Virus record (IMG/VR): IMGVR_UViG_3300050016_000385
Coordinates: 1-59,939 of that record
DNA: 59,939 bases
DNA from: a virus
Lineage: Duplodnaviria; Caudoviricetes
Direction: 5' to 3' (one strand)
The translations under genes were made by a program, and so were the position numbers. Positions within the stretch are counted from its first letter, which is position 1; each line of letters begins with the position of its first letter. Positions 2,584 to 47,325 of this stretch are shown here, piece by piece. A model generated the notes under the pieces. That model saw only the letters and a list, made by a program, of their open reading frames with translations. It was not told the origin of the DNA and searched no databases.

Positions 2584-5007
2584 TTATTGCAGCTTCATCA
2601 CGAACACGTCCCCGCGCGGCGCGTTGTGGGAGGAAGTGCAAGCTCCCGACGCGGAGACCGCGCAGGACGTGGTTCCATCCATGCAACCGAGAGAAGCGTT
2701 CATGGGGCTGCTCAACAGCACAAACCGGCCGTCTTGGGAGATGCTGGTCACCGTAATTTGCACGGCGAAGCAGGGCGTGGGGACGCCGTAGGTATGCCCC
2801 TGACGGGATACCGTACCGGCTAAAGCCCCAGCCGCCGGGCCAAAGATTCCCAGGATTTCGTTGACCGCGCATTTCGAGTAATCGGGCAGCACCGTTTCCG
2901 AACTGGTGGCGGTGAAAAAGGCGTGATCGTCGGCCGGATCGTCGTTGTTCCATCCCGGATGGGTGTCGTAAATCTGCGAGTAGCTGGCGCAATAGGTCGC
3001 CGGGAAGATGGTGGAAGTGAGCGGAGAGGCGAAGGTGGTGGCCCCCCAGAACGGCGTGTTGTATTGATTGACGAACGTTCCATACCCCGTGGTGAAGTGC
3101 CCACTGCACGTATTCGGACACTTGGTGTAGACGTTGGTGGTGCCCACCTGCCAAAAGTAAGGCGAGGTTCCATTACCGCACACGCTGCCGACGTCACATA
3201 TTCCAATCGACACGATGGCCCAAACCCCGTCAAGCGACGCCTTGGTGTTATGCAGCGTGAAGGTGCCGGGAGAGGGCGTGGTGTCGGTGAGGGTGCCGCC
3301 GGTGCCGGTCTGCCCCGCAAGTCCCGACGTGGTGAGCTGGATATGGGTGGAATCGGTAACGAGCAAGACCGGAAACGTCCCATTGAGCGCGCTGTTGCTA
3401 TTGCCTGCAACCAAAACCGAGTCGCCGACATTAAAGCCAAGGCTTGACGTGACCACAAAGGTGGCAAATTCCGGGTGGCCACTAGTGGGGACATTCACGC
3501 TGACCGAAGACGATGCCGTTGAAACCACGCAGTTCCGGCAAACCGCTGTGCCAGTCGTGCCCCAGTCCCCGGTAATCGTGTTGGTCTGCGTGTTCCACAC
3601 CGAGCAACCGGAACCCACTTTGTAGGAAGCGATATAGCGGCCCGTGTTCTGCGAGCCGGAGGTCGAAAAGCCGTCGATGAAAACCGTGTCCGCGCCGCCG
3701 TTCACGCCCACGTTCGGCGGGTCGGTCGAGTTGGTCACCGTATTTGGCAGGCAGTTGGGGCTGGTGGTGAAGTTGTAAACCAGGACGGGGGTTGGCAGGG
3801 TGGGGTAGTTGACGCTGACATCGTACTTATTCAGGAACGTTCCCGAAGTGGTCCCTGTCGAGTTGGTGGGGACGTACACGGTGCTATTGGTCCCCGCCGA
3901 GCGGGAAAACGAGATGGCGCACCCGCCGCCCATCTTCAGCGCGTTGAAATAGTTCGAGTACTTGAAGGTCGCCTGCATGGTGCTGGGGTTGAAAGCGTAA
4001 AAATAACTGGTGCCGCCCGCATCGCAAATATCGAAGAGCGTCGAATCCGTGCTCCAGTGGTTCACGTCTCCGCTTCCCCCGCCATCCGCAAAAAAGGAAG
4101 TGTTCTGCTTGGTGCTGGGACACGCCGGTTCGGTCTGGTTTCCGCAACCTGAAAATACGTTGGTAATCCGCACCCAGGGATTGTGATAGAGGCCGCTGGT
4201 ATTCCCGGATCCCACGGGTTCAGGATCGTTGACCAGGGTATTGTCGACTCCGGAACCCGCTGTCCCTTGTCCACTGAAAGGCACCACGACGGGCGCAAAG
4301 GCTCCCGGCTGCGTAGAAATGGTCGGAGTGCAGCTATAGGTCGGTGGTCCGCAGGTGGGGCCGCTCGAACCCACCGTCAAAGTGACCGCCAGGGTCGCCG
4401 TCAGGGGCGTGACGGGGGTTGAGTCGGTCACGGTGACCGAGAAATTCGTGGTTCCGGTCGCCGCCGTGCCGGTAATGGCCCCGGTCCCGGCATTCAGCGA
4501 CGCCCAGCCCGGTAATGATCCGGTCGAAACCGTCCAAGTGTAAGGCAAAACTCCGCCCAGGGCTGTAAGGGTATAGGAGTACGCAATGCCATTGGTCCCG
4601 ACCGCCAGAGGGCAAGGCGGGGTGCCGCAGTTCGGGGCGGTGATGGCAATCCCCCCCCCAGGGCCCACTACGAATGCGCCGGTCCCGACCAGCCCGCCGG
4701 AACTGCAAGTGATATTCGCGGAACCAGCACTCACCGCCGTCGCCAGGCCGTTCGCGTTGATCGTAGCCACGCCAGTATTTGAACTGGCCCACACGCACTG
4801 ATTGGTGATGGGGTTTGCCAGCGGCCCGCCCAAGACAGCCTGCGCGATAAATTGCACGGTAAGCCCTGGCGGACTGGTCGCCGAATTGACGAAAATCCCG
4901 GTGGTCGGGGTCGCAGGTCCGCCGAAGCTGACGGCGGGGAGCGACTGGCCCAAGGCGCTTGTCGAGAGCGCGAAAACTGCGAGGGAAAGTAGGAATGCTT
5001 TTTTCAT
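2584..5007 (-). CDS. Sec-signal protein: Big_2-like Ig domain, putative Ig domain, beta-propeller-like C-terminus
   Basis: Start 5007 by ATGA overlap; MKKAFLLSLAVFALSTSALG|Q; VWASSNTGVATINANGLATAV; GGVLPYTWTVSTGSLP; ISQDGRFVLLSS...RGDVFVMKL; 24 Cys. Confidence 0.8.
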   Translation of the reverse strand: MKKAFLLSLAVFALSTSALGQSLPAVSFGGPATPTTGIFVNSATSPPGLTVQFIAQAVLGGPLANPITNQCVWASSNTGVATINANGLATAVSAGSANITCSSGGLVGTGAFVVGPGGGIAITAPNCGTPPCPLAVGTNGIAYSYTLTALGGVLPYTWTVSTGSLPGWASLNAGTGAITGTAATGTTNFSVTVTDSTPVTPLTATLAVTLTVGSSGPTCGPPTYSCTPTISTQPGAFAPVVVPFSGQGTAGSGVDNTLVNDPEPVGSGNTSGLYHNPWVRITNVFSGCGNQTEPACPSTKQNTSFFADGGGSGDVNHWSTDSTLFDICDAGGTSYFYAFNPSTMQATFKYSNYFNALKMGGGCAISFSRSAGTNSTVYVPTNSTGTTSGTFLNKYDVSVNYPTLPTPVLVYNFTTSPNCLPNTVTNSTDPPNVGVNGGADTVFIDGFSTSGSQNTGRYIASYKVGSGCSVWNTQTNTITGDWGTTGTAVCRNCVVSTASSSVSVNVPTSGHPEFATFVVTSSLGFNVGDSVLVAGNSNSALNGTFPVLLVTDSTHIQLTTSGLAGQTGTGGTLTDTTPSPGTFTLHNTKASLDGVWAIVSIGICDVGSVCGNGTSPYFWQVGTTNVYTKCPNTCSGHFTTGYGTFVNQYNTPFWGATTFASPLTSTIFPATYCASYSQIYDTHPGWNNDDPADDHAFFTATSSETVLPDYSKCAVNEILGIFGPAAGALAGTVSRQGHTYGVPTPCFAVQITVTSISQDGRFVLLSSPMNASLGCMDGTTSCAVSASGACTSSHNAPRGDVFVMKLQ

Positions 5008-6644
5008 GGAATCACCAAGCCCCTGGGAAGTGTGAGTCCAGGCGACATCACCACGCCCGCTCCACCGCCCGCCGCCACGGGAGTCACCTGGTACGCCCCT
5101 ACATCCCAAGCCCCGACGACCGGGCGAGCTACCGCAACCCGAGCCGGATAAGAGACGGTGTGTGGTGTGGCGTTGTAGGTGACCCCATACGTCGTATCTT
5201 TTCCGCAAGCTGCGCCGGCCGCCGCATTGAGCGCGGTGATTGCGGTGCAAACGCTGGCTTGGTTTGCCCCAACGCCCACGGTCGCATTGCCGAGAAATTG
5301 CGGAGAAAAAGAATAGGTTTCACCCAGCGTGTATCCTTGGGCGTTCGCCGTAGCCAGGGTTTGATTCACGATGTTCGCGGTCGTGACCGGGCAGGCGCTC
5401 GCGCATTCCGGCGAGACGTAGTTGAGTCCGCCGCCGCTGTTGTAGATGGTGTGAAAGTTGGTTTCGGTGACTCCGGCAATCAGCACTCCGGGCTGTCCGG
5501 TGCCGATCTTGTTGCATTGGTTGGTGGGGCCGGAGTCCGGGCCGCATTCTTCCGTGTTATTGAACCAGTTACAAGTTCCGCCGCCGAGCGAACTAGCGTT
5601 GAAATACTCGCCGCACATCAGCATCGGCGTGGCCACTCCAGTGCCGCTATTGATCAGCACGTTGTTGAAGGCGTAGGCGGTCTTCGTTAGGTTCGGCGTC
5701 TGCCAGAAGGTCACCCCGCCATTGCCGTTCAGCGAGGCCACGTTGTTATAGAGAATCGACGTGTCCGTGGCGTCGATGTTTGAGATCATCTCTCCGGTGT
5801 GGGAAACGCCGCCGGTGTATACCACCGCGCCAACGTTCACCAAAGTGTTGTCGTGGAATAGCCGGATGCTGCCATTCAGCGCGTATTCGAGGTTCGCAAT
5901 GTAGTTCTGGTAGACGTCGCCAAAACCTCCGCCGCCGATGCACATCATGCTTTGCTCATCGGTATCGGCGCCGTCGCAGACGTTGTTGTAGAACAGGTTC
6001 GAGGCCGTACTTGCCGTGCCCGAACCTGCGAAGCAAGCGGCATTATTATTCTCGGCAATCGCCGCCGAATGCGTCCAGCCGTGGCAGTAGTTGTCGTGGA
6101 TGACGATCCCACTGGCATTGCCGAACGCGATATAGGACACCTGGTTTGTGAGCGCCGCGCTCCAATTCAGGCCGGTAAATTCGACAAAGCCCACGTCGAT
6201 ATAGTTCTGCGTCCCGGTTACGAGATCTAGAAACTCTGCCGGGTTGGTTGCGCCGGGGAAAGTTCCGCCGCCCGTAAGAATGGCGCGGCCTGACCCCCAG
6301 GTGGAGTCGTAAGCGCCAAGCCCGATAGTATTCGAGCTGGTGCCGCTGAACGCGAATGCAATTTTCGCGGAAAGCGTCCAGGAGTCGCCGCCCTTTAGTA
6401 CGAACGCCTCACCTGCGGTTGGAGTAGTGGAGGCGCAAGTGCTCGCGCACCCGCTCTGTCCCGGAATATGGGCGAAGGCCGCAGCCTCCGAAGTGCCGGC
6501 GTTCGTGTCCGCGCCCGAGGTCGAGACGTAAAAGCAGCTTGTGATTCCCGTGGGAACCGGGATGGCGTTACAACTTCCGCCGGCGGCCCATGCGGGCAGG
6601 GGCAGCGACGACGCCAGCAACGCGAATAGGAAGACTCGCTTCAT
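5004..6644 (-). CDS. Sec-signal right-handed beta-helix (pectin-lyase-like, depolymerase/spike-like) protein
   Basis: MKRVFLFALLASSLPLPAWA|A; FYVSTSGADTNAGTS, LKGGDSW, repeated YNN/FNN/HDN rungs, terminal WDVGAYQ; 16 Cys. Confidence 0.8.
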   Translation of the reverse strand: MKRVFLFALLASSLPLPAWAAGGSCNAIPVPTGITSCFYVSTSGADTNAGTSEAAAFAHIPGQSGCASTCASTTPTAGEAFVLKGGDSWTLSAKIAFAFSGTSSNTIGLGAYDSTWGSGRAILTGGGTFPGATNPAEFLDLVTGTQNYIDVGFVEFTGLNWSAALTNQVSYIAFGNASGIVIHDNYCHGWTHSAAIAENNNAACFAGSGTASTASNLFYNNVCDGADTDEQSMMCIGGGGFGDVYQNYIANLEYALNGSIRLFHDNTLVNVGAVVYTGGVSHTGEMISNIDATDTSILYNNVASLNGNGGVTFWQTPNLTKTAYAFNNVLINSGTGVATPMLMCGEYFNASSLGGGTCNWFNNTEECGPDSGPTNQCNKIGTGQPGVLIAGVTETNFHTIYNSGGGLNYVSPECASACPVTTANIVNQTLATANAQGYTLGETYSFSPQFLGNATVGVGANQASVCTAITALNAAAGAACGKDTTYGVTYNATPHTVSYPARVAVARPVVGAWDVGAYQVTPVAAGGGAGVVMSPGLTLPRGLVIP

Positions 6645-9600
6645 TTTCGAATGTCGCAGGAATAGCTCACCACATCGGTTGCTCCGCTGGTGGTGAAGGT
6701 GACGCTGGTTCCAGCGGTGTAGGTGACTTCGACCGCGGCAATGGCAGTTTCATCCGACCCCACGCAGGTCGGGTGCACCGCGTAGTTGGTATTCAGGAAG
6801 GTGTACGATTTTGTTCCGCCCGACATCGTAAGTTCGCCGTTGAGGTCGGTATTGGTCGAGACTCCACTACCGATGCTGCCCACGCCGCATAGCGTGCTGG
6901 TCAGGGGCGTGCAACCCACCGGGGCTGTGCCGAGCGTCACGGCCCCGGAGATTGAGGTCGATCCGCCCATGTGTGCCCCATTGATCGTCGTTCCAAACAC
7001 GTTCGCGCCGGGATTGTTGCAATCGGAATTCGTGCCCAGGCAGTTGCCCGTCCCGGCGGCGATGTTGTCGTTTTCGGTGAGGAATCCGGTGCCGATGTTT
7101 TCCGCGTTCAAAACTGCCCCGCTCGTGGCCGAAGCCGTCGCCGTCATGTGCAGTACCGCGGTATAGCACTGGTGTTTGTCTCCGATCAGGATGGCGCTGG
7201 CCTTGGCCGTGGTGGTGACGCAATCGTTGCCGCTCGATGCGTTCTGCTCAAAGTGGCTGTCGGTAAATACCGGCGCCGCCTTCTGTCCTCGCACCAGCGC
7301 CTCGCTGAACACCCCCACTCCACCTTTGGAAGACACCGACACGTTGCGGAATTCTCGCAGGGTTCCGTTTGCGATCGCGCTCGGATTCAAGGTGCCGTCA
7401 ATCACATAGTCGATGAAATTGCCTCCGGTGGTTGAGGCGGAGCACGCTCCGGTGGTCCCCATGCAATAGGCCGCTCCGGTCAGAGATCCTGTGGCCGTGG
7501 TCAGAGTGATCGAAGTCGCGCTGTTCACGCTTTGCACCTGGCAAATACTAGAGGCGCAGGAAGACCCCGTAATCTTGATAGTTGCGCCCCACCAGTTGCC
7601 GACCGGATTGCCGCTCGCAACCGTGCAGACCGCTGGCGTCGCCGAGGTGCAGTTCAGCGTCCCGGAATAGCCATTGGGTCCGCCGCCGGTGATCGAGTCG
7701 GTAAAGGCGAAATTAGGGGCATCGTTGGAAAATACGGCATAAGATTGCTGGCTGGCTCCGGTGATATCCACCGTCTTCATGTAGCTGCCTTCTTGCGCCG
7801 AGTTCACATAAATCACCGTCGCCGGGGCGTTCGCCGTGGGCACCGCCGTGGTCGCCGAGCTTCCGTTGGTCAGGTTGAGCGAAACGTCCTCGAGCGAAAC
7901 GGAGAATTCAAGTTTGGTTCCGTTCTGGTCGCCGATAACGATCAGCGGATTGCTGACATCGACCGGCAGCGGCGGCTCGCCCGTCCCCGCAAGCGTTGTC
8001 ACCGTGGTTGCCGCCGTCAGCAGGCAGCCGGTGGGGTCCATCAGCCCGATGCGGCTGGAAGCGCAGGTGCCGTTCGTTCCAATCAACACTTGCTGCCAGG
8101 CCGCAAGCGAACTGGTGTAGGTCACGCCGGATTGCGTGCCCGGGGAACTCATCAGGCTGGCAATCGTGGGGCTATAAATCTGTAATAAGTAATAAGTGAC
8201 GGAATTGATGACAATCGGAGTCCCCGCAATCAGGCTGACATCTTCGTTTTGGGAGAAGTTGCTCCCCGCGGTGACCTGCACACAGTTAGCGGGACAGGCT
8301 CCAAGCACTCCCGCCGAAGTGGTCACCGTCCCGGTAAATCCGGAAGTGGCGTAGACGTAGTATTCCGAAGCCACAAAGCTGCCGCTGCCAAGCACTGTGG
8401 GCGCGGGAACGGTAATGGATTCCGACGAACCTCCGCCATTGAGGGTGATTGAGAACTCCGAACTGTGCAGCCCGACTCCGGGTGTGCCTTGAGCGGCCGT
8501 ATAGGAGGAGTTGGTTTGCAGGTTGTTGACTTCGCTGGTGACGAAATACACCGTGCCGTCCGATAAACTTCCCCCCGAGGCGCTTTGCGTGGGCGTGGGC
8601 ACCACAGGTGACCCGAGCGGGGAGGGAAAGCTGGTCCCGTAGGTGATCATCGTGCCTTCGGAAGGGTCGTGTTCTTGCTGCACCAAGCCGGATCCTCGTA
8701 CCCGCGTTCCGTTGGGGAGAATCAGGGGCACTTCCGCCACATAACAATTCAAGTTCGCCGTGCCACAGGGATGGTTCGCCCCTCCACTGTGAATTCCCTT
8801 GCCCAGTTTGACTTCCGCGCCCATCCCGAGCTGAAACGGGTTCACGGTAATGTCTTCAGCCCCGAGGTTGTGGTCGATGCGCCCGCCGCTATTGTTGGTT
8901 GCGAAATATCCGACGCAGCCCGCCAGAGTCGAGTAGGTGACCCCATTCACATTGCAGGCCGGGTTGTTGTTGGCGGTCGGGCCGACGAACGTAGCCTGAA
9001 GCGCTCCCGTAATGGGGTCGATGAGGGTGTTCGGCGGGAGTTCCAGATCGACGTGGCCGATTCCATTGTTCCACACGTAGAACTGCCCATTCGCGGGGTT
9101 CGCTGGCTGGTAGCGTGCCGTAAGCACCGCCTGCCCCTGCCCGGTAAGGCCAAAGGGATTCCAGAACAGCGTCCCGTTGAGATCGCACATCTGGTCAAGG
9201 CCAAAGCCTTCGGGAAACACGTAAGCGCAGAAGGGGTCGGGGTCGAAGCCGATTACGGACGTGGTAGGCTCGTAGACCGTCAGGGGGCCGCCGTTCAGGT
9301 TGACTGGGCCGGAGAAGGTGGAATTCGTTCCCGAGAAGGTCAGGTTAGGGTTGCCGGCGCCGCTGCCGCCCAACGAGGCGTTGTAGGGGCCGCGCCACAC
9401 GCCATTGGCCTGAAAGTAGTAGGTGTAATTCCCCGGGGCCGCGTAGACCCCGAAGTTGCCGTTCACGTCGGCAACTGAGGAGCAAATGTTCGTCGTCGGA
9501 ATCGTGCCCTGGCCTGGAGCGCACGCCTGGCTACCGGTCATCGAGTTGTAGGTGGTGGCGAGATTAGTGCAAGGCGTTCCGCCCGTGGCGGGGGCGTTGC

Positions 9601-9745
9601 AAAAGACCACCGGGGCGAACGGGACGACGTGCAGCAGCCCCCCTCCTGGGTTGAGTTCGGCCACGCCCTGAAAAGATTGCACCTGCGCCACGAGAGGAGA
9701 GGACCACGCGAGCGCCAGCGCCACGAGCAAGAGAATGCGTTTCAT
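6641..9745 (-). CDS. Sec-signal tailspike/tail-fibre-like protein
   Basis: MKRILLLVALALAWSSPLVA|Q; N-terminal ADVNGNFGVYAAPGNY resembling particle-binding domains; LILPNGTRVRGSG beta-helix cap; fibre-tip-like C-terminus; 28 Cys. Confidence 0.75.
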   Translation of the reverse strand: MKRILLLVALALAWSSPLVAQVQSFQGVAELNPGGGLLHVVPFAPVVFCNAPATGGTPCTNLATTYNSMTGSQACAPGQGTIPTTNICSSVADVNGNFGVYAAPGNYTYYFQANGVWRGPYNASLGGSGAGNPNLTFSGTNSTFSGPVNLNGGPLTVYEPTTSVIGFDPDPFCAYVFPEGFGLDQMCDLNGTLFWNPFGLTGQGQAVLTARYQPANPANGQFYVWNNGIGHVDLELPPNTLIDPITGALQATFVGPTANNNPACNVNGVTYSTLAGCVGYFATNNSGGRIDHNLGAEDITVNPFQLGMGAEVKLGKGIHSGGANHPCGTANLNCYVAEVPLILPNGTRVRGSGLVQQEHDPSEGTMITYGTSFPSPLGSPVVPTPTQSASGGSLSDGTVYFVTSEVNNLQTNSSYTAAQGTPGVGLHSSEFSITLNGGGSSESITVPAPTVLGSGSFVASEYYVYATSGFTGTVTTSAGVLGACPANCVQVTAGSNFSQNEDVSLIAGTPIVINSVTYYLLQIYSPTIASLMSSPGTQSGVTYTSSLAAWQQVLIGTNGTCASSRIGLMDPTGCLLTAATTVTTLAGTGEPPLPVDVSNPLIVIGDQNGTKLEFSVSLEDVSLNLTNGSSATTAVPTANAPATVIYVNSAQEGSYMKTVDITGASQQSYAVFSNDAPNFAFTDSITGGGPNGYSGTLNCTSATPAVCTVASGNPVGNWWGATIKITGSSCASSICQVQSVNSATSITLTTATGSLTGAAYCMGTTGACSASTTGGNFIDYVIDGTLNPSAIANGTLREFRNVSVSSKGGVGVFSEALVRGQKAAPVFTDSHFEQNASSGNDCVTTTAKASAILIGDKHQCYTAVLHMTATASATSGAVLNAENIGTGFLTENDNIAAGTGNCLGTNSDCNNPGANVFGTTINGAHMGGSTSISGAVTLGTAPVGCTPLTSTLCGVGSIGSGVSTNTDLNGELTMSGGTKSYTFLNTNYAVHPTCVGSDETAIAAVEVTYTAGTSVTFTTSGATDVVSYSCDIRK

Positions 9746-9775: not shown

Positions 9776-10852
9776 TTAGTGGCGGCCGATCCTGATCGGC
9801 TTGCGTTTCGATTGGTCGAGACGGGAAAGCGTCTGGGCGTAGCGAATGTTGGCCGAGGTCAAATCGCCTTGTTCCACCAGTGGCGCGACGGCTTCGGCGG
9901 CCGTCTCTTTGGCGCTCTTGTAGGCTGGCTCGGGGTGCGACATGACTAGATACTTACCGGCATCGAGTGCGTGGTTGTCTTTCTGGACAATGGCTTCGGA
10001 GGTGTTCCGGCTCAGGAGTTGCTGTGCCGTCAGCTTCACCCGCCGCATCCGCATCATCTCCCACAGCAGGTTCGGGCAATCCCAGTTGTGCAGGCCGGGC
10101 TGCGGACTCTCGGAGAAGTTGCGACACACGATTTTCAATGTCGGCTGCCGGTGTTCGAGGTCGCGCCAGTGCATCAACACACGTTCTCCGAAGCTGATGT
10201 CGGAGTGGTCGCCGTGAAAGGGAGAAAAAATCTCGATGCCGTTCTCTACGTAAATCTCGTTCAGCGATTTCGCCCGCTCGTCTTTTCGCGTGGGTACGTT
10301 GGCTTGGGCGTTCAACGGGAAGATCGATGGGTCGGCATAACAAACCGAGATGCGGCGGATGTCGGCCATCTGTTTCAGCGTAATGGCGTGCTCCCAGATT
10401 TCCCGCCCCGGCTGGTAATATTCGCCGCAGAAAAACAAGTTGCCTTCGTAGTCGCAGTAGACCCGTTCCATCGACGTGGGATTCGCGCGTCCGTGGTCAA
10501 ACCCTGCTTCCACTCTCCACTTCGGATCGGGCTGCCAGCGCGGGTCTTCGATGACGATTTTCTTCCAGTGCGTGACCAGGGTGTCGGCCAACACCAGCTC
10601 GCCGCCGCCCGCGTTGTCTATAATTTCCTGCTCGCGATCCCATGACGCCTGCGAGGTATATTTGCGCCGCTCCTGCAGCTTCCACTCCGGGTTAATGTCC
10701 GGATCGCGCGCGGGATCGGCGGAGTAGTGATGACGAATCACCGGGATGCCGCCCTTGGTGCGGCGCAACGTAATCCCGCGCACAATCTCCACCTGCGTCT
10801 GCGGCGGCATCTTCTTGGTCCGCTCCAGAGCTGCGGCGACTTTGCTACTCAC
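9776..10852 (-). CDS. terL: terminase large subunit, C-terminal RNase H-like nuclease part
   Basis: GFDHGRANPT, YADPSIF, KDNHALDAGKY acidic nuclease motifs. Confidence 0.85.
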   Translation of the reverse strand: MSSKVAAALERTKKMPPQTQVEIVRGITLRRTKGGIPVIRHHYSADPARDPDINPEWKLQERRKYTSQASWDREQEIIDNAGGGELVLADTLVTHWKKIVIEDPRWQPDPKWRVEAGFDHGRANPTSMERVYCDYEGNLFFCGEYYQPGREIWEHAITLKQMADIRRISVCYADPSIFPLNAQANVPTRKDERAKSLNEIYVENGIEIFSPFHGDHSDISFGERVLMHWRDLEHRQPTLKIVCRNFSESPQPGLHNWDCPNLLWEMMRMRRVKLTAQQLLSRNTSEAIVQKDNHALDAGKYLVMSHPEPAYKSAKETAAEAVAPLVEQGDLTSANIRYAQTLSRLDQSKRKPIRIGRH

Positions 10853-13414: not shown

Positions 13415-13504
13415 AGCTAGGGTGTTTTTGCTCCTGGTCCACCGTCCACTTGCGTAAAAGTAGTCAGGCAGAGCATCCTGTTGGGCGGGAAAAGGGGGAG
13501 TTCC

Positions 13505-38242: not shown

Positions 38243-40671
38243 GCCGACGCTCCCGCTGCCTGGGGTTGCGCTCCCGGTCCCGCTGGCGCTCCACCCGTCA
38301 ACTGCCGTTCCGCTGCGAGTTCCTTCTGGTACACCACACAGAGTTTGTAGTAAGCGACGAGCGAGTCGAGCGCGGGCTGGTTGTCTTTCACTTTGTCCCA
38401 GTGCGCCTGCGTCCAGGATTCCAAAATCTTCTGCGAGGCTGCGAGATCGTCGAGATATTTGTTCGGCTGCACGGCCGGGATCATCACCGTCTCGCCCGGC
38501 TTCATGGGGTCGGGCTGCTCGGTCGCGGGCGATTTGACCAGGATGTTGATCACCTGCAACATCTTCTCGCGCATAGAAGCGCCGGGCGCCACCAGCCCTG
38601 GCACGCCGATGTAGCGGATGGCGTTGTCCATGTTCTCCGGCTCCGCCATCAGCCACTGCACCATTTCGGTGTTGGCGCTCTGGAAAAGCTGCTGATACCA
38701 CCCCTTGATGTCGGCGTAGGTCATAGGGAAGCCTTGATCGGTCTCTGGCTCCGCGTGCACGCTGCCTTTCATCTGGTCGAGATGGACGTATTCCGCGTAG
38801 AACTCTTTGGCCTCGTCGGCGACCGTCAACTGCCAGTCTTCGGTCATATTTTTGGCGGCGCATTTGATGGCGTTCTCGGCGGCCCTCGCGTGCTCTTTGC
38901 GGATCGTCAGCCAGTGCAGCCCGAGCTTCACCATGCCGGTGTTCAACTGTTGCGCCTGTCCGGAGGCGGTTTCGATGCCTTCCTGGGTTCCGGCGCCAAA
39001 AACCTGCGGCGGCGTTCCCACCAGCAGTTCCATGTCCGACTTGAGGCTCGCGGCGTACTGGAAGATCATGGCGTCGATCTCGGCCCGCACCTGAAAAACG
39101 AGTTCCTGAATGTTCGAGAGCGGCGCGCCTTTGCGCAGGTGGATCTCGTTTAGGATGCCCGGCAGGATGGGCTTGTTGTTCATCGCCTGGGCGTCGAGAT
39201 ACTCCGCATTGATCAACAGCAGCCCACAGGCCAGCCGGTCCATATATTCGTCGATCTTCGAGATGCAGTCATTCAACCGCTCCTGCACCGGCACGGCAGG
39301 ATTCCCCGCGGGTTCTGGCATCAGGCCAAATCCCGCCACTTCCGTGCCGTTCCAGGTCCACTCGTCGGTGAGCTTACAAGCGCGAATCTGCAACGGGAGC
39401 TCGTTGACCCAGGCCAACATACAGCCATCGGGGAAGGCTTTACTCAGTTCGTCGCACTCCGCTTTCGTGATGCCATCTGCCTCTGCAAAGAGCATCGGCT
39501 GAATCCAGGTGCGGTTGTAGGTGGGCTTCGACTGGTTCGAGAAGGCAAAATACGCCGAGCCCTGCGGAGCCGCCGTTAACATGTCCCGCCACTGCCGTTC
39601 GAGCGTAGTCGCGCTCGATCCGCCGGATTCCCCAGACTGTAATTGCTCCCACTTCTCGTTGAAGGTCCGGCGCAACCAACCGAGCGATACTTCCTCAGCC
39701 ACATTCAGCAGGCAGGTATTCAGTAGATCGGGCGCATCGGGATCGACGTCGACGTGCATCGGCCCGTAGACGGTTTGCAGCACCATACCGTTCGGCACAT
39801 CGGCACGCTCGTCGGCAACCGGGACGGTTTCGGTGTGGGGCTCAAAGAAGTTCTGCGGCCCGAACGGACTGCCGCAATTGGGGCAAGCGAAACTGGTTTG
39901 GCCGGCCAGTGCGTCCTCTGGCGTAGTTGCTCCGCAGTGAAAGCAGGTATAGCGCGCGGGCAGAATGTCGGTCTTCAGCAGTCGGAGGACGGTCTGCTTG
40001 TGGGTTCCGGTGCGGTCTTTGTCCACCACGTAGCGGGTGAATTTGAAATAACACCCAGAGGTGAAAAGCTCCATCAACTCGATGAGCAGCAGAATGTCGG
40101 GGTCGTTCGCCCGCTCGATGATGGTTTCGACCCGGCTCGCAACCAACGCCGTGGCCCGGTCCTCTTCGACGTTCGGATTCACGGGCAGCCACCGCGATTT
40201 CGGAATCTGCGCGCTCAAGGCCGCTACAAAAGCCTTTTCGAGCATCTGGTAGAAGTTGTGCGGCCGCTTGTCCATGGTCTGATCGGCATTGCGGTCGTCC
40301 GACGCCCCCATGTAGTTCCAGTATTCCTCGAAGGCGTCGAAAGTTTGATAGGTGCCGGGCAGCACCCCGATGTTGTGGTTGCCCTTCAGCATCTCCTTGT
40401 TTTTGAGGATGGTCAGGATTTTCGGACGGCGCTTCCATTCCCATTGCGTTCGCTTCTCGGTGACCACATCGATCAGCCGCTTGCCCCACTTTTGCAGCAA
40501 GGCTTCCATTTCGTCATCTGGCTCGGCGGGAGACTGTGGATTCGGTTCTTCCGAGGGTGGAGTCTTCGGCGGCGTGACCACGGCAGAGAGCGTGGAGTCC
40601 TGGCCAGGAATCGGCGGGGCCTGGCCTACAGCGGGGGCTTGCCCGAGGTGTTGGGTGGGAGCGGTGGCCAT
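38239..40671 (-). CDS. portal protein with zinc-ribbon insertion
   Basis: 810 aa first in head cluster; NFYQML..FVAALS, VQERLNDCISKIDE, ETASGQAQQLN; CFHC-x16-CPNC insertion. Confidence 0.8.
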   Translation of the reverse strand: MATAPTQHLGQAPAVGQAPPIPGQDSTLSAVVTPPKTPPSEEPNPQSPAEPDDEMEALLQKWGKRLIDVVTEKRTQWEWKRRPKILTILKNKEMLKGNHNIGVLPGTYQTFDAFEEYWNYMGASDDRNADQTMDKRPHNFYQMLEKAFVAALSAQIPKSRWLPVNPNVEEDRATALVASRVETIIERANDPDILLLIELMELFTSGCYFKFTRYVVDKDRTGTHKQTVLRLLKTDILPARYTCFHCGATTPEDALAGQTSFACPNCGSPFGPQNFFEPHTETVPVADERADVPNGMVLQTVYGPMHVDVDPDAPDLLNTCLLNVAEEVSLGWLRRTFNEKWEQLQSGESGGSSATTLERQWRDMLTAAPQGSAYFAFSNQSKPTYNRTWIQPMLFAEADGITKAECDELSKAFPDGCMLAWVNELPLQIRACKLTDEWTWNGTEVAGFGLMPEPAGNPAVPVQERLNDCISKIDEYMDRLACGLLLINAEYLDAQAMNNKPILPGILNEIHLRKGAPLSNIQELVFQVRAEIDAMIFQYAASLKSDMELLVGTPPQVFGAGTQEGIETASGQAQQLNTGMVKLGLHWLTIRKEHARAAENAIKCAAKNMTEDWQLTVADEAKEFYAEYVHLDQMKGSVHAEPETDQGFPMTYADIKGWYQQLFQSANTEMVQWLMAEPENMDNAIRYIGVPGLVAPGASMREKMLQVINILVKSPATEQPDPMKPGETVMIPAVQPNKYLDDLAASQKILESWTQAHWDKVKDNQPALDSLVAYYKLCVVYQKELAAERQLTGGAPAGPGAQPQAAGASA

Positions 40672-41341: not shown

Positions 41342-42676
41342 TTAGTTGACGATGAAGTAGCTCACGCAGGCCGGATTGCTCGCAATGACCGCGCCGATGG
41401 TGAAGGTGAAAGACGTCCCCCCGGTTCGCGCCGTGACCACTGGATTCAGGAGCGTGGAAAGTGTGGTGTTACAGGTGACGCTTAATTTCGTTCCTAGACT
41501 CTCATCCACGCTTAACAGGATCTGACTGTTGGCCGTGACTGCGGTCGTGTTGACTACCAATGTCGGATTGGTTCCGGTTGGCAGGGCCACGCTACCTGCT
41601 GCCGCCGCCGCACACACGGCGGGAGAGGCGCTGCTGGAACAATTTGTAGTCGTTAAGAGCGCCGGAGTTGTGATTGAGGTTAGGAATGTCGGGGCGGTTT
41701 GCAAGGGGATTCTTCCGGTGCCGGTAATGGCCTGCGGATTCAGTAGGTCGAAATTCGCCCCGTCATAAATCATGCAGGCGGGTTCGTTGGTCCCGATGTC
41801 TCCCGGAGCGATAAGGCCGCCAGCGAACCGAACAATCGTTTTCGCACCCAACCCGCTAAAGTTCACGGTGGGGTTTGTGGTCGTGCTTGCAGCGGAAGCC
41901 TTGAAGCAGCCATAGCTCCCGGTGGCTGGGCCGGTCATGGGCGGCGCTAAGGTAACGACGTAGGCGTTGACCGCCCCGGTATCGGCGGCGTAGAGATTCT
42001 GCGGTAATGTTTGCCCGAGAACAAATGCCGTGGTTGCGACTTGCGTCGTGTTAGTGTTCGCCGCCGCGGTCGGCGCGGTCGGGGTGCCAGTCAGTCCAGG
42101 CGAAGCCACGGGCGCAATCGACGAATCCACATACGCCGAGGTGATTGTCGTGCAGGTGGGAACCGCCGAAGCGCTCACTGCGGTCACGGCCTGATTCGTA
42201 CACGTCCCGCCCGGAGTCGTGCCCCCGATCTTGGTGCAGGTGATGACGCCCGCGGACGTCGCCGTGCAATCGCTGCTTAAATTCGCAAGGACATTGCCCA
42301 GAGCGAACGTCGAGCTGCTGGTCCCACTGGGGCATTCCAGACTGACATTCGTGGTCGAGGTCTGGAAAGTGCAATTCAGAAAGTTCGATTGCGCGGCCGG
42401 AGTAGCGGCGTTGAAATTCGCCGTCGCCAGATTGCTGCCTCCGGCTACGGTCACGTTGCTACCAGAACCCGCGCCGGTACAGGTGAGGGCGAAAATACTG
42501 CCACTCTGCGTGGCGGTGCATCCCGAGACCAGATTGAGCGTCACTCCGCCGCTGGCTGTGCCTACGGCGCTGCCGTTGTTTTGTACGGTAATCGAGCCGC
42601 GGGAGCCATTACTGGACTGGCTGAAGGCAGCCAGCGTGAGCAACAGGAAGACGGCAATAAGGAGCCTGGGTCTCAT
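41342..42676 (-). CDS. tail fibre protein with Sec signal peptide
   Basis: MRPRLLIAVFLLLTLAAFS|Q; fibre motifs ASPGLTGTPTAPTAAANTNTTQVATTAFV and YAADTGAVNAYVVTL...GLGAKTI...YDGANFDLLNP; 14 Cys. Confidence 0.85.
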   Translation of the reverse strand: MRPRLLIAVFLLLTLAAFSQSSNGSRGSITVQNNGSAVGTASGGVTLNLVSGCTATQSGSIFALTCTGAGSGSNVTVAGGSNLATANFNAATPAAQSNFLNCTFQTSTTNVSLECPSGTSSSTFALGNVLANLSSDCTATSAGVITCTKIGGTTPGGTCTNQAVTAVSASAVPTCTTITSAYVDSSIAPVASPGLTGTPTAPTAAANTNTTQVATTAFVLGQTLPQNLYAADTGAVNAYVVTLAPPMTGPATGSYGCFKASAASTTTNPTVNFSGLGAKTIVRFAGGLIAPGDIGTNEPACMIYDGANFDLLNPQAITGTGRIPLQTAPTFLTSITTPALLTTTNCSSSASPAVCAAAAAGSVALPTGTNPTLVVNTTAVTANSQILLSVDESLGTKLSVTCNTTLSTLLNPVVTARTGGTSFTFTIGAVIASNPACVSYFIVN

Positions 42677-42678
42677 AT

Positions 42679-43032
42679 TTAGTCGTACTCGATGAAGCGC
42701 AACGTGGTTGCGGTGGCGGTGTTCGAGCGGGCTTTGATCAGGTTGTCGGCCGCCCGGTAGTTGGGCGTGCCCACCGTATTCTGGGCATTCATTCCGAGCA
42801 GCGGCCCGCGATCCCCTACCCTGTGGAAGTTCGGGATCTGAATCGGCTCCGAGCCAAACGACACTGTGTTCAAAGCGACGAAGTTGTCCACAAAGCTCGA
42901 AAACTGGATGCCTTGGGGCGCGGTGCCTTCGTCTTCCATGAACTCTATGCCTCGAGTCGGCCCGGTGGCTGCGATGGTGACAAACGCTCCAGCATTGCCG
43001 TTGAGCGCGATCAAACGTTCGCGTTGCGCCAT
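42679..43032 (-). CDS. hypothetical beta-rich protein (possible structural)
   Basis: 117 aa, tight spacing. Confidence 0.7.
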   Translation of the reverse strand: MAQRERLIALNGNAGAFVTIAATGPTRGIEFMEDEGTAPQGIQFSSFVDNFVALNTVSFGSEPIQIPNFHRVGDRGPLLGMNAQNTVGTPNYRAADNLIKARSNTATATTLRFIEYD

Positions 43033-43037: not shown

Positions 43038-43229
43038 CTACCCCCTCTCCGCGATGCGCTGGCCAATCGACTTCCGCTTCGGCGGCGCTTCGCCCGTGGG
43101 CAACATGTCGGGATTCTTGTTGGCGGTGGCGTGGAACACGGATTCGCCTTTTTTCTCGCCGTAGTGGTCCTGCATCTTTTGCATGACCTCGCGGCCCTTG
43201 CCTTTGAAATACTTTCCGATTGGGCTCAT
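43038..43229 (-). CDS. small basic phage protein
   Basis: KGREVMQKMQDHYGEKKGESVFHATANK; ATGA coupling. Confidence 0.7.
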   Translation of the reverse strand: MSPIGKYFKGKGREVMQKMQDHYGEKKGESVFHATANKNPDMLPTGEAPPKRKSIGQRIAERG

Positions 43230-43609
43230 TTCGTGGCTCCCATCAGTTCAGTCACCGACACTCCGGTGTTCGGAATCACTTGGTCGGCGCGGTCGTCGTG
43301 GATGACGCTGAAGCGTTTACTCTTCTCGTGGGTGATGGGGAGGATTTCCCCCAAATGCGCCTTACACCAGGCCGCGATCGCGAGATAGGACAGCGTGGCG
43401 TTCATCCCTTCCTTGAAAGTGTCATCGCCCGGATTGACCCGCGCCGTAAAGATGAAGACTTCCTCGCCCGCCGCGCGCCAGGCTTTCACTTTCTTGACCA
43501 TCTCCTCGACGGCAGAGCCGATCTTCTGCGGGCCATACTTCTCCAGGTCACCCGTTTGGTAGTGGGCCAGAGTGCAGTCCAGATCGACGGCGTGAACTTC
43601 TTTTGACAT
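43226..43609 (-). CDS. HAD-superfamily phosphatase-like protein
   Basis: AVDLDCTLA, IFTAR, THEK, IHDDRA = HAD motifs I-IV. Confidence 0.8.
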   Translation of the reverse strand: MSKEVHAVDLDCTLAHYQTGDLEKYGPQKIGSAVEEMVKKVKAWRAAGEEVFIFTARVNPGDDTFKEGMNATLSYLAIAAWCKAHLGEILPITHEKSKRFSVIHDDRADQVIPNTGVSVTELMGATK

Positions 43610-43763
43610 GAAGGAAAGGGAGTGGGGCCGCTTTGGACCACAGCGCCATCTCACGCCGAAAGGGGTCGCGGAAATCGGCGCTAAAGGCAAACTGGCTGGA
43701 GCCGGCCCCGCACTCCAGCTCTTCCCGTGGCCCAAAGGAAAGCCTGCTTGTTAGTGATTGAAG

Positions 43764-45422
43764 CTAGTTGTTGAGCACTTCGATTTTCAGATCCTGCATT
43801 TGCGGTGGGGTCGTGCTTTCAGCGCCGCTGGTCTGCAGGAATACGAAGAACACAGCGTCCTGATCGAGCACGTCCGCGGTGATGGCTGCGGTCGAGCCTT
43901 CGATGTAGGGGTTGCCGATGGTCCCCTGAGCGCTCACCTGCTCAATGCCAAAGCCGCCCGGCATGATGGTGCCGGTTGTGCCAATGGCGTTTACGGTCCA
44001 GTCGCATTCCTCGTGGTACTTGATCGCAGCCGTGCCAGTGGCGGTGATGTCGCCGGCAAGTTTGCAGATGATCAAAGGCGTTCCGGTAGAGAAGTCGGTG
44101 ATGTCGCCGATTTCCACGTCGATGCCGGTAGCGGTGCCGCCCGTCGAAGGTGTGGCCGTCACGTCGAAGGAGAAGCGGACGGTGCCGCCGATTCCCAGGT
44201 TCTGCAGGAAGCCAGTGGGCAACTGCACGGTTCCTACTACGCCAAGCTGCCCAGCAGTCAAGGCGGGAGTCGCCGTAAACGGCCCGTAGTTCAACTGAAA
44301 CCCATAGCCTGGCCGCTGGCTCGGTCGATAGGCAAAGGTGGTGTGGCTTTGCGGGTTGGGATTGTAGGCCGCCGCGATTCCGCCAGATTGGGGGATCAGC
44401 GAGGTCGTAGTCACCGGGCCCAACATGGTGGCCGCGGATCCAATCGCGCAAACCGGATAGGCGGTGAAGGTGGTCGAGAGCGTGCAGTTTGAAGCCGTTA
44501 CTGGCAGGACATAGGCGGCGCTGTTGTAGGTCAACCCTCCCCAAGGGAGCCACCCATAGGCGCCGGTCGAAGCTGCTGGCGAGTTGTACTGCAGCACGTT
44601 GGTGCCGGAAGCGCTGGGAGTCAGGGTGTGAGTAACGGAAGCCACACTCCAACCGCCGAGCGCGTCGATGTAGATGTCGCCTGCAACCTCCGCGCTGTTC
44701 GGCCAGGTGCCGCCGGTGGTGGCCGACTGACAAACCAAGCCTGCGGTCGCGGCGCAAGTCAGGTTCGCGCTGGCCGTCGGTACGGCCAAAGCCGTGAGCG
44801 TCGAGGGCTGCAGGTTATACCACGCTGGGCCAGTCCCTGAAATATCGTTAATGAGCTGGTTGGCTTGCAGCGTGCCGCCCACAGTGGCCGCCGTCGTGAT
44901 GGTCGCAGCGGTGCAGCCATCGTCATAGAACTTTTGGTCAACGATCACCGTGCCCGCTTTTCCGCCGAGATCGTTCAACGCCTCGCGCAGTCCGCACGTG
45001 CCGGAACGCAGATTGAAGCTGTAGTGCGAGTTCGCCGGGCTCATGTTGATGGTGCAGGTTGAGCTGGTGAGGGTCGGCGCCGTCTCAGTCACGGTTTCCG
45101 TGTTCGCCGAAACTGCATCGATGATGTTGACGCTGGCATTGGCGTTGAACGGCTGGACGCCGCGCACTCCGGCATGGACCGCCTCGAAGCAGGCTTCCGC
45201 CGGGAAGGTGTAAGTCCCGCCCATTCCCGAATTGAAGGTGGAAGGGATGTTGTAGTTGAACTGGCTGGCGACGCGCTGGTTGTCGATGGCCCACGCGCTT
45301 AGCCCGTAGTTTCCGGCGCTCGAGTTCGCGTTGTAGCCGCCGCCGCTTTGCGAGAATGCCAGAGCCGTCGAGAGTACGATGACGAGCGCCAGCAGTGAGG
45401 TTACGATCCGACGTGGTTTCAT
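43764..45422 (-). CDS. Sec-signal beta-rich fibre/appendage-like protein
   Basis: MKPRRIVTSLLALVIVLSTALAFS|Q; SGTCGLREALND; AGGAG RBS; 10 Cys. Confidence 0.75.
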   Translation of the reverse strand: MKPRRIVTSLLALVIVLSTALAFSQSGGGYNANSSAGNYGLSAWAIDNQRVASQFNYNIPSTFNSGMGGTYTFPAEACFEAVHAGVRGVQPFNANASVNIIDAVSANTETVTETAPTLTSSTCTINMSPANSHYSFNLRSGTCGLREALNDLGGKAGTVIVDQKFYDDGCTAATITTAATVGGTLQANQLINDISGTGPAWYNLQPSTLTALAVPTASANLTCAATAGLVCQSATTGGTWPNSAEVAGDIYIDALGGWSVASVTHTLTPSASGTNVLQYNSPAASTGAYGWLPWGGLTYNSAAYVLPVTASNCTLSTTFTAYPVCAIGSAATMLGPVTTTSLIPQSGGIAAAYNPNPQSHTTFAYRPSQRPGYGFQLNYGPFTATPALTAGQLGVVGTVQLPTGFLQNLGIGGTVRFSFDVTATPSTGGTATGIDVEIGDITDFSTGTPLIICKLAGDITATGTAAIKYHEECDWTVNAIGTTGTIMPGGFGIEQVSAQGTIGNPYIEGSTAAITADVLDQDAVFFVFLQTSGAESTTPPQMQDLKIEVLNN

Positions 45423-45534: not shown

Positions 45535-47325
45535 TCACTGATAGACGCAAAAACTGTTGCGCTCGGCGGTGAGAGTGCCCGCACCATTCGCGGCGGCTTG
45601 CAGCACTACGCTGCCAGCGGTAGTGGACGTCGTCACACCGGCAGTGACAATGGCTGGAAAGTCGGTCGCGGCGGTAACCGTGCCCGTGTTAGCGACCGAC
45701 TGAGAACCAGTCCCGACGCTGGACTTCCAGGTTCCTGTGGTCGCCGTGACTGCGCTGGTCATGTTGAGACTGACGGTCGCGCCCGCGGGCACTAGCACCT
45801 TGAACTGAGGGCCAGCCGTTGCTGCAGATGCCTGCCACGTGATTTGACACGTCAGCGTGTAGGTGTTCGAGGCGGCAGCGTAAAAGAACACCGGAGGAAT
45901 GTTTGAGAACGATGTGGTCGCGTTCGTGTAAGTGGGACTGACGGCAATCGTGACCGGGATCTGCTGCACCCCCGAGAACGCGTGCAGCCCTTGATGCAAC
46001 ATGAAATCATTGGGCGATCCGTAGATGATATCGGTCGCGACGAAAGGAGGGGGAGCCGAGGTTTCCGTGAAAGACAGTGCTCCAAGTCCCAAGGTTGCAG
46101 GCGCGCTCTGGTCGGCCAGTTTGAGGTTTAACTGAGTTCCGGAACCAAACAAACCGGTATAACCGCTAGTGACGCCGCCGAACAAAAGATTGGGACTCGC
46201 TCCCGTCAACACCACGCCCCCGGCATGGGAGATATTCAGCCGGTCGGAGAAATCCACGCTGAAGCCTTCATCCGCGCTGTGGGCGACGTTCCGCCAGTTG
46301 AGTTGATCGGTTTGCGCCAGCCGCAGGAAGCCGCTGGCGGCTGGGTTCGCGGCGGTAGAGACAATGGAACCAGAATTAATGAAAAGGAAAAAGCCGGTGC
46401 CCCCGAGGAAGTTGGCGTTGCCGTTGAAGGTGGCGTTGCCCTGCACATTCAGTGTCCCGCCGATATTCAGCCCGCTTGCGATCGACTGCACCAAAGTGTT
46501 CGGGGGGTTGGTGAAAATCGGAGTCGGGTAGAAGACGCCACTGGTCGAACAGTTCCCGGTGGGCGCACCGTTTGAGATGTTGATCGTGGCCGCAGCCCCG
46601 CCATACATACACCAAGTCTGCGGGAAGCCGGAGATTTGGCTGCCGTTCTTGTTGACCAAGTTAACGGTGTAATAAGTTCCGGTGGGTACGAGCTGGTCGC
46701 TGAGATAAACCGAGCAGAAGCTAGTATTGAGGGCTTGCGGCGTCGCTCCGGTCACGAGCGGCACGCTTTGCGCGTACTGCGTCCAGCCGGTCACCGTGCC
46801 TTGGATGGTTTCCCCGCCCGAGGTGGTGCTGATGGCCACTCCGTAACCCGTGGCGGAATTCGGCTGCACCCCGGGCGCATTGACGTAGACCGTGCCCATG
46901 CCGCTGAGGTTGATCTTGGCCTCCGGCGAGACCGCGCCCACTCCGCCGGCTCCGATGTAGTAGAGAACGACGTAGTAGGTGCCGGCCGCAAGCGTCCCGG
47001 CGCTGCTGTAGCCGAGGGAAAGGACGGGACTCGCAAGGGCGTCAGGAACCCCCACCACGTTGCCCTGGGCGCTGGTGTAGCAGGCGCTTTGCTCGGTGGC
47101 GATGGTCGCGGTTCCCGCGATGATGGCGGGCTGGCTGAGACTGAAAGTTAACGCGCCGTAGTTGACCGGGCCGCCGGTCGCCGTCTGCACCTGCCCCAAG
47201 ATGACACTCGAAGGGCCGGCTGAGGATCCGGGACCGGGGACGACCTGAGCGCAGATTTGCGGGGTTAGAAGCCCGCAGAGGGCCAAAACCGCCAAGCGGA
47301 AGTTATGCGGGAATTTGCGCAGCAT
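45535..47325 (-). CDS. Sec-signal fibre-like protein with FN3-like module
   Basis: MLRKFPHNFRLAVLALCGLLTPQICA|Q; GTLAAGTYYVVL..SPEA; GGTLNVQGNATF fibre-shaft repeat; 6 Cys in mature part. Confidence 0.75.
   Translation of the reverse strand: MLRKFPHNFRLAVLALCGLLTPQICAQVVPGPGSSAGPSSVILGQVQTATGGPVNYGALTFSLSQPAIIAGTATIATEQSACYTSAQGNVVGVPDALASPVLSLGYSSAGTLAAGTYYVVLYYIGAGGVGAVSPEAKINLSGMGTVYVNAPGVQPNSATGYGVAISTTSGGETIQGTVTGWTQYAQSVPLVTGATPQALNTSFCSVYLSDQLVPTGTYYTVNLVNKNGSQISGFPQTWCMYGGAAATINISNGAPTGNCSTSGVFYPTPIFTNPPNTLVQSIASGLNIGGTLNVQGNATFNGNANFLGGTGFFLFINSGSIVSTAANPAASGFLRLAQTDQLNWRNVAHSADEGFSVDFSDRLNISHAGGVVLTGASPNLLFGGVTSGYTGLFGSGTQLNLKLADQSAPATLGLGALSFTETSAPPPFVATDIIYGSPNDFMLHQGLHAFSGVQQIPVTIAVSPTYTNATTSFSNIPPVFFYAAASNTYTLTCQITWQASAATAGPQFKVLVPAGATVSLNMTSAVTATTGTWKSSVGTGSQSVANTGTVTAATDFPAIVTAGVTTSTTAGSVVLQAAANGAGTLTAERNSFCVYQ

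Follow-up and report, generated by a model that had tools for sequence, protein, structure and literature searches.

Tailed phages are, by textbook account, assembled entirely in the cytoplasm. The tail fibres and tailspikes of podoviruses, of which P22 gp9 and T7 gp17 are examples, bind the particle through an N-terminal module, carry no signal peptide and fold in the cytoplasm. Signal peptides do occur on the virion proteins pIII and pVIII of filamentous phages, and pIII is disulfide-bonded in the periplasm, but these phages are assembled at the membrane by extrusion. Here we analyse a stretch of 59,939 nucleotides from a virus record (IMG/VR record IMGVR_UViG_3300050016_000385, positions 1 to 59,939; 'the window' denotes this whole stretch), which is the reverse strand of positions 49418-109356 of contig C29 in a peat-soil Acidobacteriaceae genome (G000) and which, in contrast to the filamentous phages, encodes a tailed, packaging and lysing phage. 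Six proteins of its late gene unit, here called A to F, resemble the receptor-binding or depolymerase equipment of tailed phages. Because all six carry secretion signals and paired cysteines, they probably fold in the periplasm and not in the cytoplasm, where tailed particles are built.

The closest architecture that we found described is cellular. The MAT fibres of Bdellovibrio bacteriovorus (PMC10769870) have a signal peptide, a conserved beta-rich N-terminal domain, a phage-fibre-like trimer and variable tips; when the described layouts are compared, the order of signal peptide, conserved beta-rich N-terminal domain and trimer with a variable tip is common to both systems. The MAT genes are chromosomal, in a predatory bacterium that displays the fibres on its cell surface, whereas the genes analysed here belong to a phage late operon. 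One MAT subfamily contains an S74 chaperone domain, whereas Pfam finds no S74 domain in A to F. Among the late proteins of tailed phages the known users of the Sec pathway are endolysins, both Sec-exported and signal-arrest-release (SAR) ones, for example Lys44 of phage fOg44 (PMC6116005). These are late proteins that use host Sec before lysis, as A to F would, but they are lysis enzymes and not receptor-binding or particle proteins, and the endolysin of the present phage is leaderless. Another study takes the absence of signal peptides to speak for phage origin (PMC6199706).

No description of leader-bearing tail fibres, or of periplasmic folding of tailed-phage parts, was found in literature listings and the openings of abstracts. 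With podovirus tailspikes and fibres the locus shares the late position of the genes, a conserved N-terminal module with an exchangeable C-terminus, a beta-helix glycanase fold (in B; compare the HK620 tailspike, 2vji), a predicted intertwined trimer (in F) and a hub-type tail protein. It differs from them in the signal peptides, and C differs from a P22-type tailspike in that Pfam found no family in it, the Head_binding domain (PF09008) included. A comparison within the host family is provided by Tunturi_3, a cultured podovirus of Tunturiibacter (record PP885686; PMC11924767). A leader is absent from all 15 of its structural proteins that were examined, and its annotated tail fibres contain 0-0.85% Cys; the trait therefore belongs to phage lineages and not to the host as such. 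The N-terminus of Tunturi_3 gp15 is weakly similar to residues 44-149 of F (BLASTP E 0.009; hhalign probability 21%, E 0.0011), which we regard as a lead.

Leaders and cysteine pairs of the six proteins

The six proteins are listed below with their lengths in amino acids (aa), the segments that encode their leaders (in brackets) and the predicted cleavage sites, which were placed by eye with the -3/-1 rule.

2584-5007, minus strand: A, 807 aa; leader of about 20 aa (4948-5007), MKKAFLLSLAVFALSTSALG, cleavage before Q; Big_2 and He_PIG Ig-like domains (Pfam); Cys-rich C-terminal part of 590 aa; 24 mature Cys
5004-6644, minus strand: B, 546 aa; leader of 20 aa (6585-6644), MKRVFLFALLASSLPLPAWA, cleavage before AGG; followed directly by a right-handed beta-helix (model); 16 Cys
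6641-9745, minus strand: C, 1034 aa; leader of 20 aa (9686-9745), MKRILLLVALALAWSSPLVA, cleavage before QVQ; conserved N-terminal module of about 115 aa and variable body; 28 Cys
41342-42676, minus strand: D, 444 aa; leader of 19 aa (42620-42676), MRPRLLIAVFLLLTLAAFS, cleavage before QSS; tail-fibre 'collar' motif at residues 188-219; 14 Cys
43764-45422, minus strand: E, 552 aa; leader of about 24 aa (45351-45422), MKPRRIVTSLLALVIVLSTALAFS, cleavage before QSG; 10 Cys
45535-47325, minus strand: F, 596 aa; leader of 26 aa (47248-47325), MLRKFPHNFRLAVLALCGLLTPQICA, cleavage before QVV; conserved all-beta module at about 40-290 and variable shaft/tip; 6 mature Cys

Each leader opens with between one and three basic residues, continues with a hydrophobic run without charges and closes at a site of small residues. 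An earlier note, made from the sequence of the window, had described six open reading frames (ORFs) that start with such a basic-hydrophobic-cleavage signal, and both our reading of the sequence and a leader rule confirm this. The rule is home-made and is not SignalP: it asks for a positively charged n-region, an uncharged hydrophobic window and small residues at -1 and -3. It flags six of the 36 ORFs of the late unit, exactly A to F, and misplaced the cleavage site in A and C. At a lax setting it flags 731 of 2613 ORFs in the host genome (28%), so that a single hit means little. The statement in the same note that portal, capsid, nozzle and ejection proteins are signal-less stands in so far as A to F alone are flagged; the names portal, capsid and ejection are themselves positional. 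In D, the open frame upstream of the start is non-coding, and a separate ORF (42679-43032) stops 2 nt before the ATG. The leader of F holds two extra Cys. Two other signal types were considered and rejected: a lipobox in F (LALC), where the residue at -1 is Leu, and a Tat signal in E ('RR' in the n-region), as RR is absent from most E-like leaders.

The leaders are retained across large families. A word-indexed search found 74 homologues of F, and a profile of the N-terminal module of F matched 1794 cluster representatives at E<=1e-3, 346 of them at E<=1e-30. From the profile matches 183 proteins were taken for a survey of leaders, which the rule finds at the called start in 133 and from an upstream in-frame start in 16; the other 34 comprise 20 with a leader by eye, 13 truncated or partial sequences and one unclear case. 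Leader features are retained in at least 169 of the 183, and no member with a clearly complete N-terminus was found to be leaderless among them, so that the survey of signal retention that had been suggested earlier comes out in favour of the leaders. The 13 truncated entries include the gene calls from the window (P0001) and from an IMG/VR relative, G061, with a capsid-like protein 96% identical to that of the window (P0006); at both, the DNA encodes the leader. The leaders of the F family have no common sequence and share the n-h-c pattern alone, and the point at which they end meets a conserved mature start (Q-V-V/I-P-G or G-T-V/I-T-G). At this boundary 144 of 167 members have A, G or S at -1, and 160 of 167 have a small or aliphatic residue at -3. 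In the B family (48 members) the rule finds a leader in 35, and the remaining 13 are made up of eight with a leader by eye, four fragments and one truncated sequence. The G061 counterparts of B, C, D, E and F all retain leaders. The genomes that carry F homologues are catalogued as Acidobacteriaceae or Terriglobales. Judged on these alignments, the leaders look like those of Sec substrates cleaved by signal peptidase I, both in their own features and in their retention despite drift of the leader sequence.

The mature parts of A to F contain 24, 16, 28, 14, 10 and 6 Cys, all even, and these counts and the close pairing agree with those reported earlier. When the Cys are paired in sequence order (1-2, 3-4 and so on), the gaps within pairs are much shorter overall than the gaps between pairs. 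This is most evident in C, where 28 Cys give 14 sequential pairs and the median gap is 9 residues inside a pair and 50 from one pair to the next. Permutation of the pair spacing gave p values of 0.011 (A), 0.011 (B), 0.0001 (C), 0.13 (D), 0.07 (E) and 0.38 (F), which combine to 5e-5. The Cys density of the six proteins is 1.05-3.3%, against a mean of 0.64% in the rule-flagged exported host ORFs, and only eight of 295 rule-flagged host ORFs of at least 400 aa have a Cys content of 1.8% or more.

Of 138 members of the F family, 111 have an even number of Cys in the mature part, and the variable C-terminal parts that contain any Cys have an even count in 99 of 134. Cys82 and Cys204 are present in all 74 aligned members, and Cys239 and Cys259 are gained or lost together: 62 members have both, 11 have neither and one is mixed. 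The proteins and their relatives carry a disulfide-type signature of even counts, close sequential pairs and co-loss of pairs. The even-Cys bias and the pair co-loss are consistent with an oxidising compartment. As far as sequences can establish it, the leaders and the Cys pairs are conserved, selected features.

Fibre and spike architecture and host relatives

The homologues of F share only the first 40-50% of the protein; beyond it their C-termini vary, with SGNH esterase (PF13472) and pectate-lyase-type (PF12708) domains among them. In a monomer model of F residues ~40-260 are all-beta, with a predicted local distance difference test (pLDDT) score near 90, and the rest is below 50. Modelled as three copies, residues 270-596 scored 0.92 against 0.00 for the best of three controls; at least 97% of contacts agree between the runs, and partner pLDDT is at least 91. 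The mark used here was reached by 20 of 30 proteins whose solved structure is a pair of the same chain and by one of 23 solved as single chains, and it is rough in this application, which used our own alignment and three copies. The modelling supports an intertwined homotrimer as the predicted form of the F shaft. Foldseek returned no match in the PDB at E<=1e-3 for the F model or its N-domain, and in BFVD, at the same threshold, 31 matches to phage proteins, all of a generic Ig/FN3-like kind.

The architecture expected of receptor-binding proteins, in which a late gene encodes a conserved N-terminal module followed by an exchangeable C-terminus, is found in C, E and F and partly in D; B and A have no such module. 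C of the window and a 1251-aa protein of G061 have the N-terminal module in common and then diverge, as do F and its G061 counterpart; the C-B-A region is otherwise replaced in G061, and the counterpart of D is a leader-bearing protein of 243 aa. The N-terminal region of E is common to proteins of 233-1580 aa in related phages, and E matches no Pfam or PHROG family. D matches the PHROG tail-fibre families phrog_454 (4.4e-8), phrog_2631 and phrog_7032 through a motif of about 30 residues. For C, language-model features gave a likeness to P22-type tailspikes of 0.85, which lies under the 0.9 line and serves as a lead; a region search with its N-terminal module found three family members, too few for a survey. 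The earlier note had recognised no signal-less classical fibre, and the present searches agree: outside A to F, nothing in the late unit gave a match to a Pfam or PHROG tail-fibre family, and many late proteins have no annotation at all, so that a hidden one could exist. A tblastn search of 50,697 GenBank phage records with the portal-like protein, F, D and B gave no match.

B and A have relatives in the host. The AlphaFold2 model of B is a right-handed parallel beta-helix (pLDDT 78; predicted template modelling score, pTM, 0.84), for which Foldseek found 39 PDB matches at E<=1e-3 with modest TM-scores of 0.2-0.47. They include GH136 lacto-N-biosidases, Pel9A, rhamnogalacturonan lyases, PL6 alginate lyases, the HK620 tailspike (2vji) and RbmB (9ozd), and B models as a beta-helix glycanase of the polysaccharide lyase or hydrolase type. 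A host paralogue with 30% identity to B (C28:111072-112808) has 578 aa, a leader and 16 Cys. Around it (G000:C28:99900-117959, L071) lie genes for two GT2 glycosyltransferases, methyltransferases, a MatE-type flippase-like protein, a polysaccharide deacetylase, an asparagine synthase and a FemAB-like acyltransferase, a neighbourhood that is an exopolysaccharide (EPS) biosynthesis cluster. B and its paralogue thus resemble glycanases of EPS loci such as Vibrio cholerae RbmB (9ozd) in being leader-bearing with a predicted beta-helix and, for the paralogue, in lying in an EPS locus; B itself differs, as it is a late gene of a phage and overlaps the adjoining genes. Within the order B-like genes occur sporadically, in 13 of 301 genomes, this one included.

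Residues 218-807 of A are 38% identical to the C-terminus of a leader-bearing host protein of 1334 aa (G000:C48:35133-39137). This protein has a beta-helix-type N-terminus ahead of its A-like C-terminus (G000:C48:35133-54136, L072), and some 8-15 kb downstream of it are possibly phage-like ORFs, one of 780 aa; the region may be a second mobile element. Because this homologue and the paralogue of B exist, B and A look related to exported glycan-active proteins of the host, and their leaders may have come along with the domain. Such kinship fits equally with fibre tips that can fold only outside the cytoplasm and with free enzymes.

Proposed two-compartment assembly and its alternatives

We hypothesize, with a probability of about 0.5, that the six proteins are late phage fibre or spike parts that are exported, folded oxidatively and docked on the particle at lysis, with B and perhaps A as enzymes. 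On this view the phage is tailed, integrated in an Acidobacteriaceae host, at most ~68 kb long and equipped with a hub-type short tail; it would make each of A to F with a cleavable Sec signal peptide and export it to the periplasm late in infection. There, VKOR/DsbA-type machinery of the host would close many local disulfide loops. The host has an extracytoplasmic disulfide pathway, since two VKOR and four DsbA-like (Thioredoxin_4) genes were found above Pfam cut-offs; export, cleavage before Q or G and disulfide formation are steps that we infer from what is established about Sec and Dsb/VKOR. C, D, E and F would be receptor-binding fibres or spikes, each combining a lineage-conserved N-terminal docking module with a freely exchanged shaft or tip. 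B, and perhaps A, would be EPS-degrading enzymes akin to exported enzymes of the host. Head, hub and ejection proteins would be assembled in the cytoplasm, and the particle would meet the exported parts once holin and the leaderless endolysin open the envelope. At that point the exported trimers are proposed to dock on the hub or an adaptor, while B and A may ride on the fibres or work as enzymes in the free state. That spikes can be joined to heads in vitro is classical for P22 and T4. The export and oxidative folding suggested in the earlier note are well supported by Sec-like leaders and disulfide-like Cys pairs that are retained across large families. The full scheme, in which all host-recognition parts go through Sec, fold oxidatively in the periplasm and dock only at lysis, is tentative, and we would place it slightly below even odds.

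A number of observations weigh against this hypothesis. The leader calls come wholly from the home-made rule and from reading of the sequence, and the members of the F family are related to each other, so their independence is overstated in the p values for even Cys counts. The gene callers for the window and for G061 start F past the leader (P0001, P0006), and because of this choice a leaderless cytoplasmic isoform of F is conceivable; no clear ribosome-binding site was seen at either start. As the fibres of the Acidobacteriaceae podovirus Tunturi_3 are leaderless and low in Cys, the host does not impose the export route. B is without an N-terminal anchor module and its family includes the host gene in the EPS cluster, and the C-terminus of A has its host homologue; given these relatives, B and A could be captured exoenzymes that never touch the particle. 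Finally, a signal-less fibre could be hidden among the many unannotated late proteins.

One alternative we consider unlikely, though far from negligible: that the proteins are exported and never join the particle, being Sec-exported, disulfide-bonded late enzymes or adhesins that work free, while the true receptor-binding protein is an unrecognised signal-less one. They could cut or bind the surface of the host and its exopolysaccharide, acting from within the periplasm and also from outside once the cell has lysed, thereby freeing progeny from the matrix, destroying receptors on debris or being displayed on the cell surface in the manner of MAT fibres. The conservation of the B family at full length and with leaders, down to the host paralogue in an EPS cluster, fits this well, as do the match of the B fold to secreted matrix lyases such as RbmB, the occurrence of the A C-terminus in a leader-bearing host protein and the number of unannotated late proteins. 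Signal peptide, conserved beta-rich N-domain and variable tip are also the MAT layout (PMC10769870). Harder to accommodate are three distinct conserved N-terminal modules (of C, E and F type) with swapped C-termini, which point to docking on a conserved phage-encoded partner, and the position of F-like and E-like genes next to a portal-like gene even in small elements of a sister family. D contains a tail-fibre motif, and neither Pfam nor PHROGs offered another fibre candidate. B, at least, may be a free enzyme, as it has no anchor module and its host paralogue lies in an EPS cluster.

It is a good deal less probable that the leaders do not export the functional form, either because they stay uncleaved as inner-membrane anchors for tail assembly or because a leaderless cytoplasmic isoform is the one that is assembled. 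The start that two gene callers chose for F, just past the leader (P0001, P0006), would agree with such an isoform, but no clear ribosome-binding site precedes that internal start. Some F-family members have long N-terminal extensions before the hydrophobic segment, reminiscent of signal anchors, and in L044 there is an E-like protein whose n-region is acidic and whose hydrophobic stretch is long; against this, an A-x-A-type site lies at the leader/mature boundary in 144 of 167 members, leader features persist in at least 169 of 183, and the even-Cys bias and co-loss of Cys pairs fit an oxidising compartment. The earlier note had also allowed for surface or secreted factors made by the lysogen, that is, lysogenic conversion. 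Exported morons are common on prophages, and the element is an integrated prophage. However, the genes are packed between terminase and endolysin, C/B and B/A being joined by 4-nt overlaps and A lying 4 nt from the endolysin gene, and all six are on the minus strand in one co-directional late unit with the structural genes. Promoter-like sites in that unit numbered zero with a consensus that may not fit Acidobacteria, and terminator-like sites were at or below shuffled expectation, not above chance. A to F are embedded in the operon as tightly packed late genes, unlike moron-like cassettes, with no promoter and terminator of their own found to set them apart. The same genes also occupy the same places on IMG/VR phage contigs. 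Given this layout, expression from the prophage as lysogen factors is the least likely reading and very improbable.

If assembly in two compartments is correct, it would add a step to the morphogenesis of a large, uncultured lineage in which every recognition protein bears a conserved export signal. Since the F-type module has 1794 cluster representatives (E<=1e-3), the route would be common in acidic soils. Fibre tips could then use disulfide-rich periplasmic or extracellular glycanase domains of the host that are unable to fold in the cytoplasm. Work on proteins of this kind would call for periplasmic expression, with Dsb, and pipelines for prophages and auxiliary metabolic genes that read 'signal peptide + glycanase' as a secreted enzyme of benefit to the host would be affected. 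What the prophage adds is the host link through integration, the paralogue in a host EPS locus, the host VKOR and DsbA genes, a leaderless control and the family-wide counts.

The prophage, its late unit and related elements

Contig C29 is 119 kb long and belongs to an assembly of 3.9 Mb (96% complete, 59% G+C). Host housekeeping genes flank the element on both sides, with isocitrate dehydrogenase, SdhA, a P-type ATPase and TruB (C29:41215-42204) on one and a MiaB-like enzyme (C29:111626-113335) on the other, so that the element is an integrated prophage of at most ~68 kb; its IMG/VR relatives are contigs 62-71 kb in length. Between ~1100 and 48800 of the window, almost every long, codon-biased ORF is on the minus strand. 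The division of the leader-bearing genes into two trios inside the late unit, as first described, holds in that all six lie in the unit; the second trio is interrupted by the signal-less ORFs 43226-43735 and 42679-43032. The other late genes to which the text refers are the following.

2094-2579, minus strand: endolysin with a glucosaminidase domain (PF01832, E 1e-18), leaderless; 4 nt downstream of A
9776-10852 and 10845-11645, minus strand: large-terminase-like, two overlapping ORFs, weak match
11500-12102, minus strand: small terminase subunit (PF03592, phrog_51)
26343-29057, minus strand: probable tail hub/nozzle, 904 aa, signal-less (ESM Atlas language-model features)
34385-35671, minus strand: capsid-like protein, 428 aa, named by position; served as query for relatives
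38239-40671, minus strand: portal-like protein, 810 aa, named by position; adjoins fibre genes in relatives
42679-43032, minus strand: protein of 117 aa, signal-less and Cys-free; in relatives always between the leader-bearing fibre genes and the portal-like gene
43226-43735, minus strand: small HAD-like, signal-less ORF between E and D (phrog_1238, annotated phosphoheptose isomerase, E 2.7e-6)
48110-48781, minus strand: small serine recombinase (Resolvase domain), upstream of F

The portal-like, capsid-like and hub-like proteins, and those called ejection proteins by position, have no sequence match in Pfam, PHROGs or PDB chains. By ESM Atlas language-model features the 904-aa protein falls with viral clusters (0.97) and with a Phage_stabilise (PF11134) cluster (0.93), a family that we take to be of the P22 gp10 hub type, and the tail hub of the prophage looks P22-like.

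The order of an F-like gene, an E-like gene, the gene for the 117-aa protein and a portal-like gene is found, whole or in part, in 23 IMG/VR loci in which the leaders are kept; the leader-bearing proteins there range from 233 to 1586 aa and contain 4-34 Cys. Homologues of the capsid-like protein are present in 16 of 24 genomes of a sister family, or in 11 of 19 when the unpublished G046, G048, G050, G052 and G055 are left out. These 16 (11) genomes carry small elements (G039:C19 at ~191-206 kb, L022-L023; G038:C8; G045:C3) that hold portal-, capsid-, hub- and adaptor-like genes at ~30% identity, the 904-aa hub-like protein being among those with homologues, together with an F-like leader-bearing gene and a further leader-bearing protein of 945-984 aa. 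No terminase or ejection genes were seen near them, and the elements may be decayed or domesticated prophages.

Some features of the late unit stand apart from the leader-bearing proteins. The large-terminase-like region (window 9776-11645) is divided into ORFs of 266 and 358 aa with an 8-nt overlap, and G061 keeps the split (277 and 362 aa; L019 5939-7850); it may encode a two-part terminase or involve a programmed frameshift. Relatives retain the HAD-like ORF, perhaps as an accessory gene for sugar modification. The serine recombinase is conserved in G061 with 61% identity; around it no convincing invertible segment was found, but weak, short inverted repeats only. Four large late proteins of 459, 2686, 459 and 573 aa (4177 aa in total; minus strand, 12035-23313 and 35713-37434) are free of Cys, where host ORFs have a mean Cys content of ~1%, and it may be that they are ejected and pass through the oxidising periplasm. 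In the 2686-aa protein there are a 2'-5' RNA ligase-like domain and an FtsK-gamma-like stretch, and it strongly matches the end of phrog_21. Two matches lie below the Pfam cut-off: a RelA_SpoT region in a 459-aa protein (12035-13414, minus strand; E 0.0041) and a Hint/Vint domain at residues 320-412 of a 436-aa protein (25070-26380, minus strand; E 0.0046).

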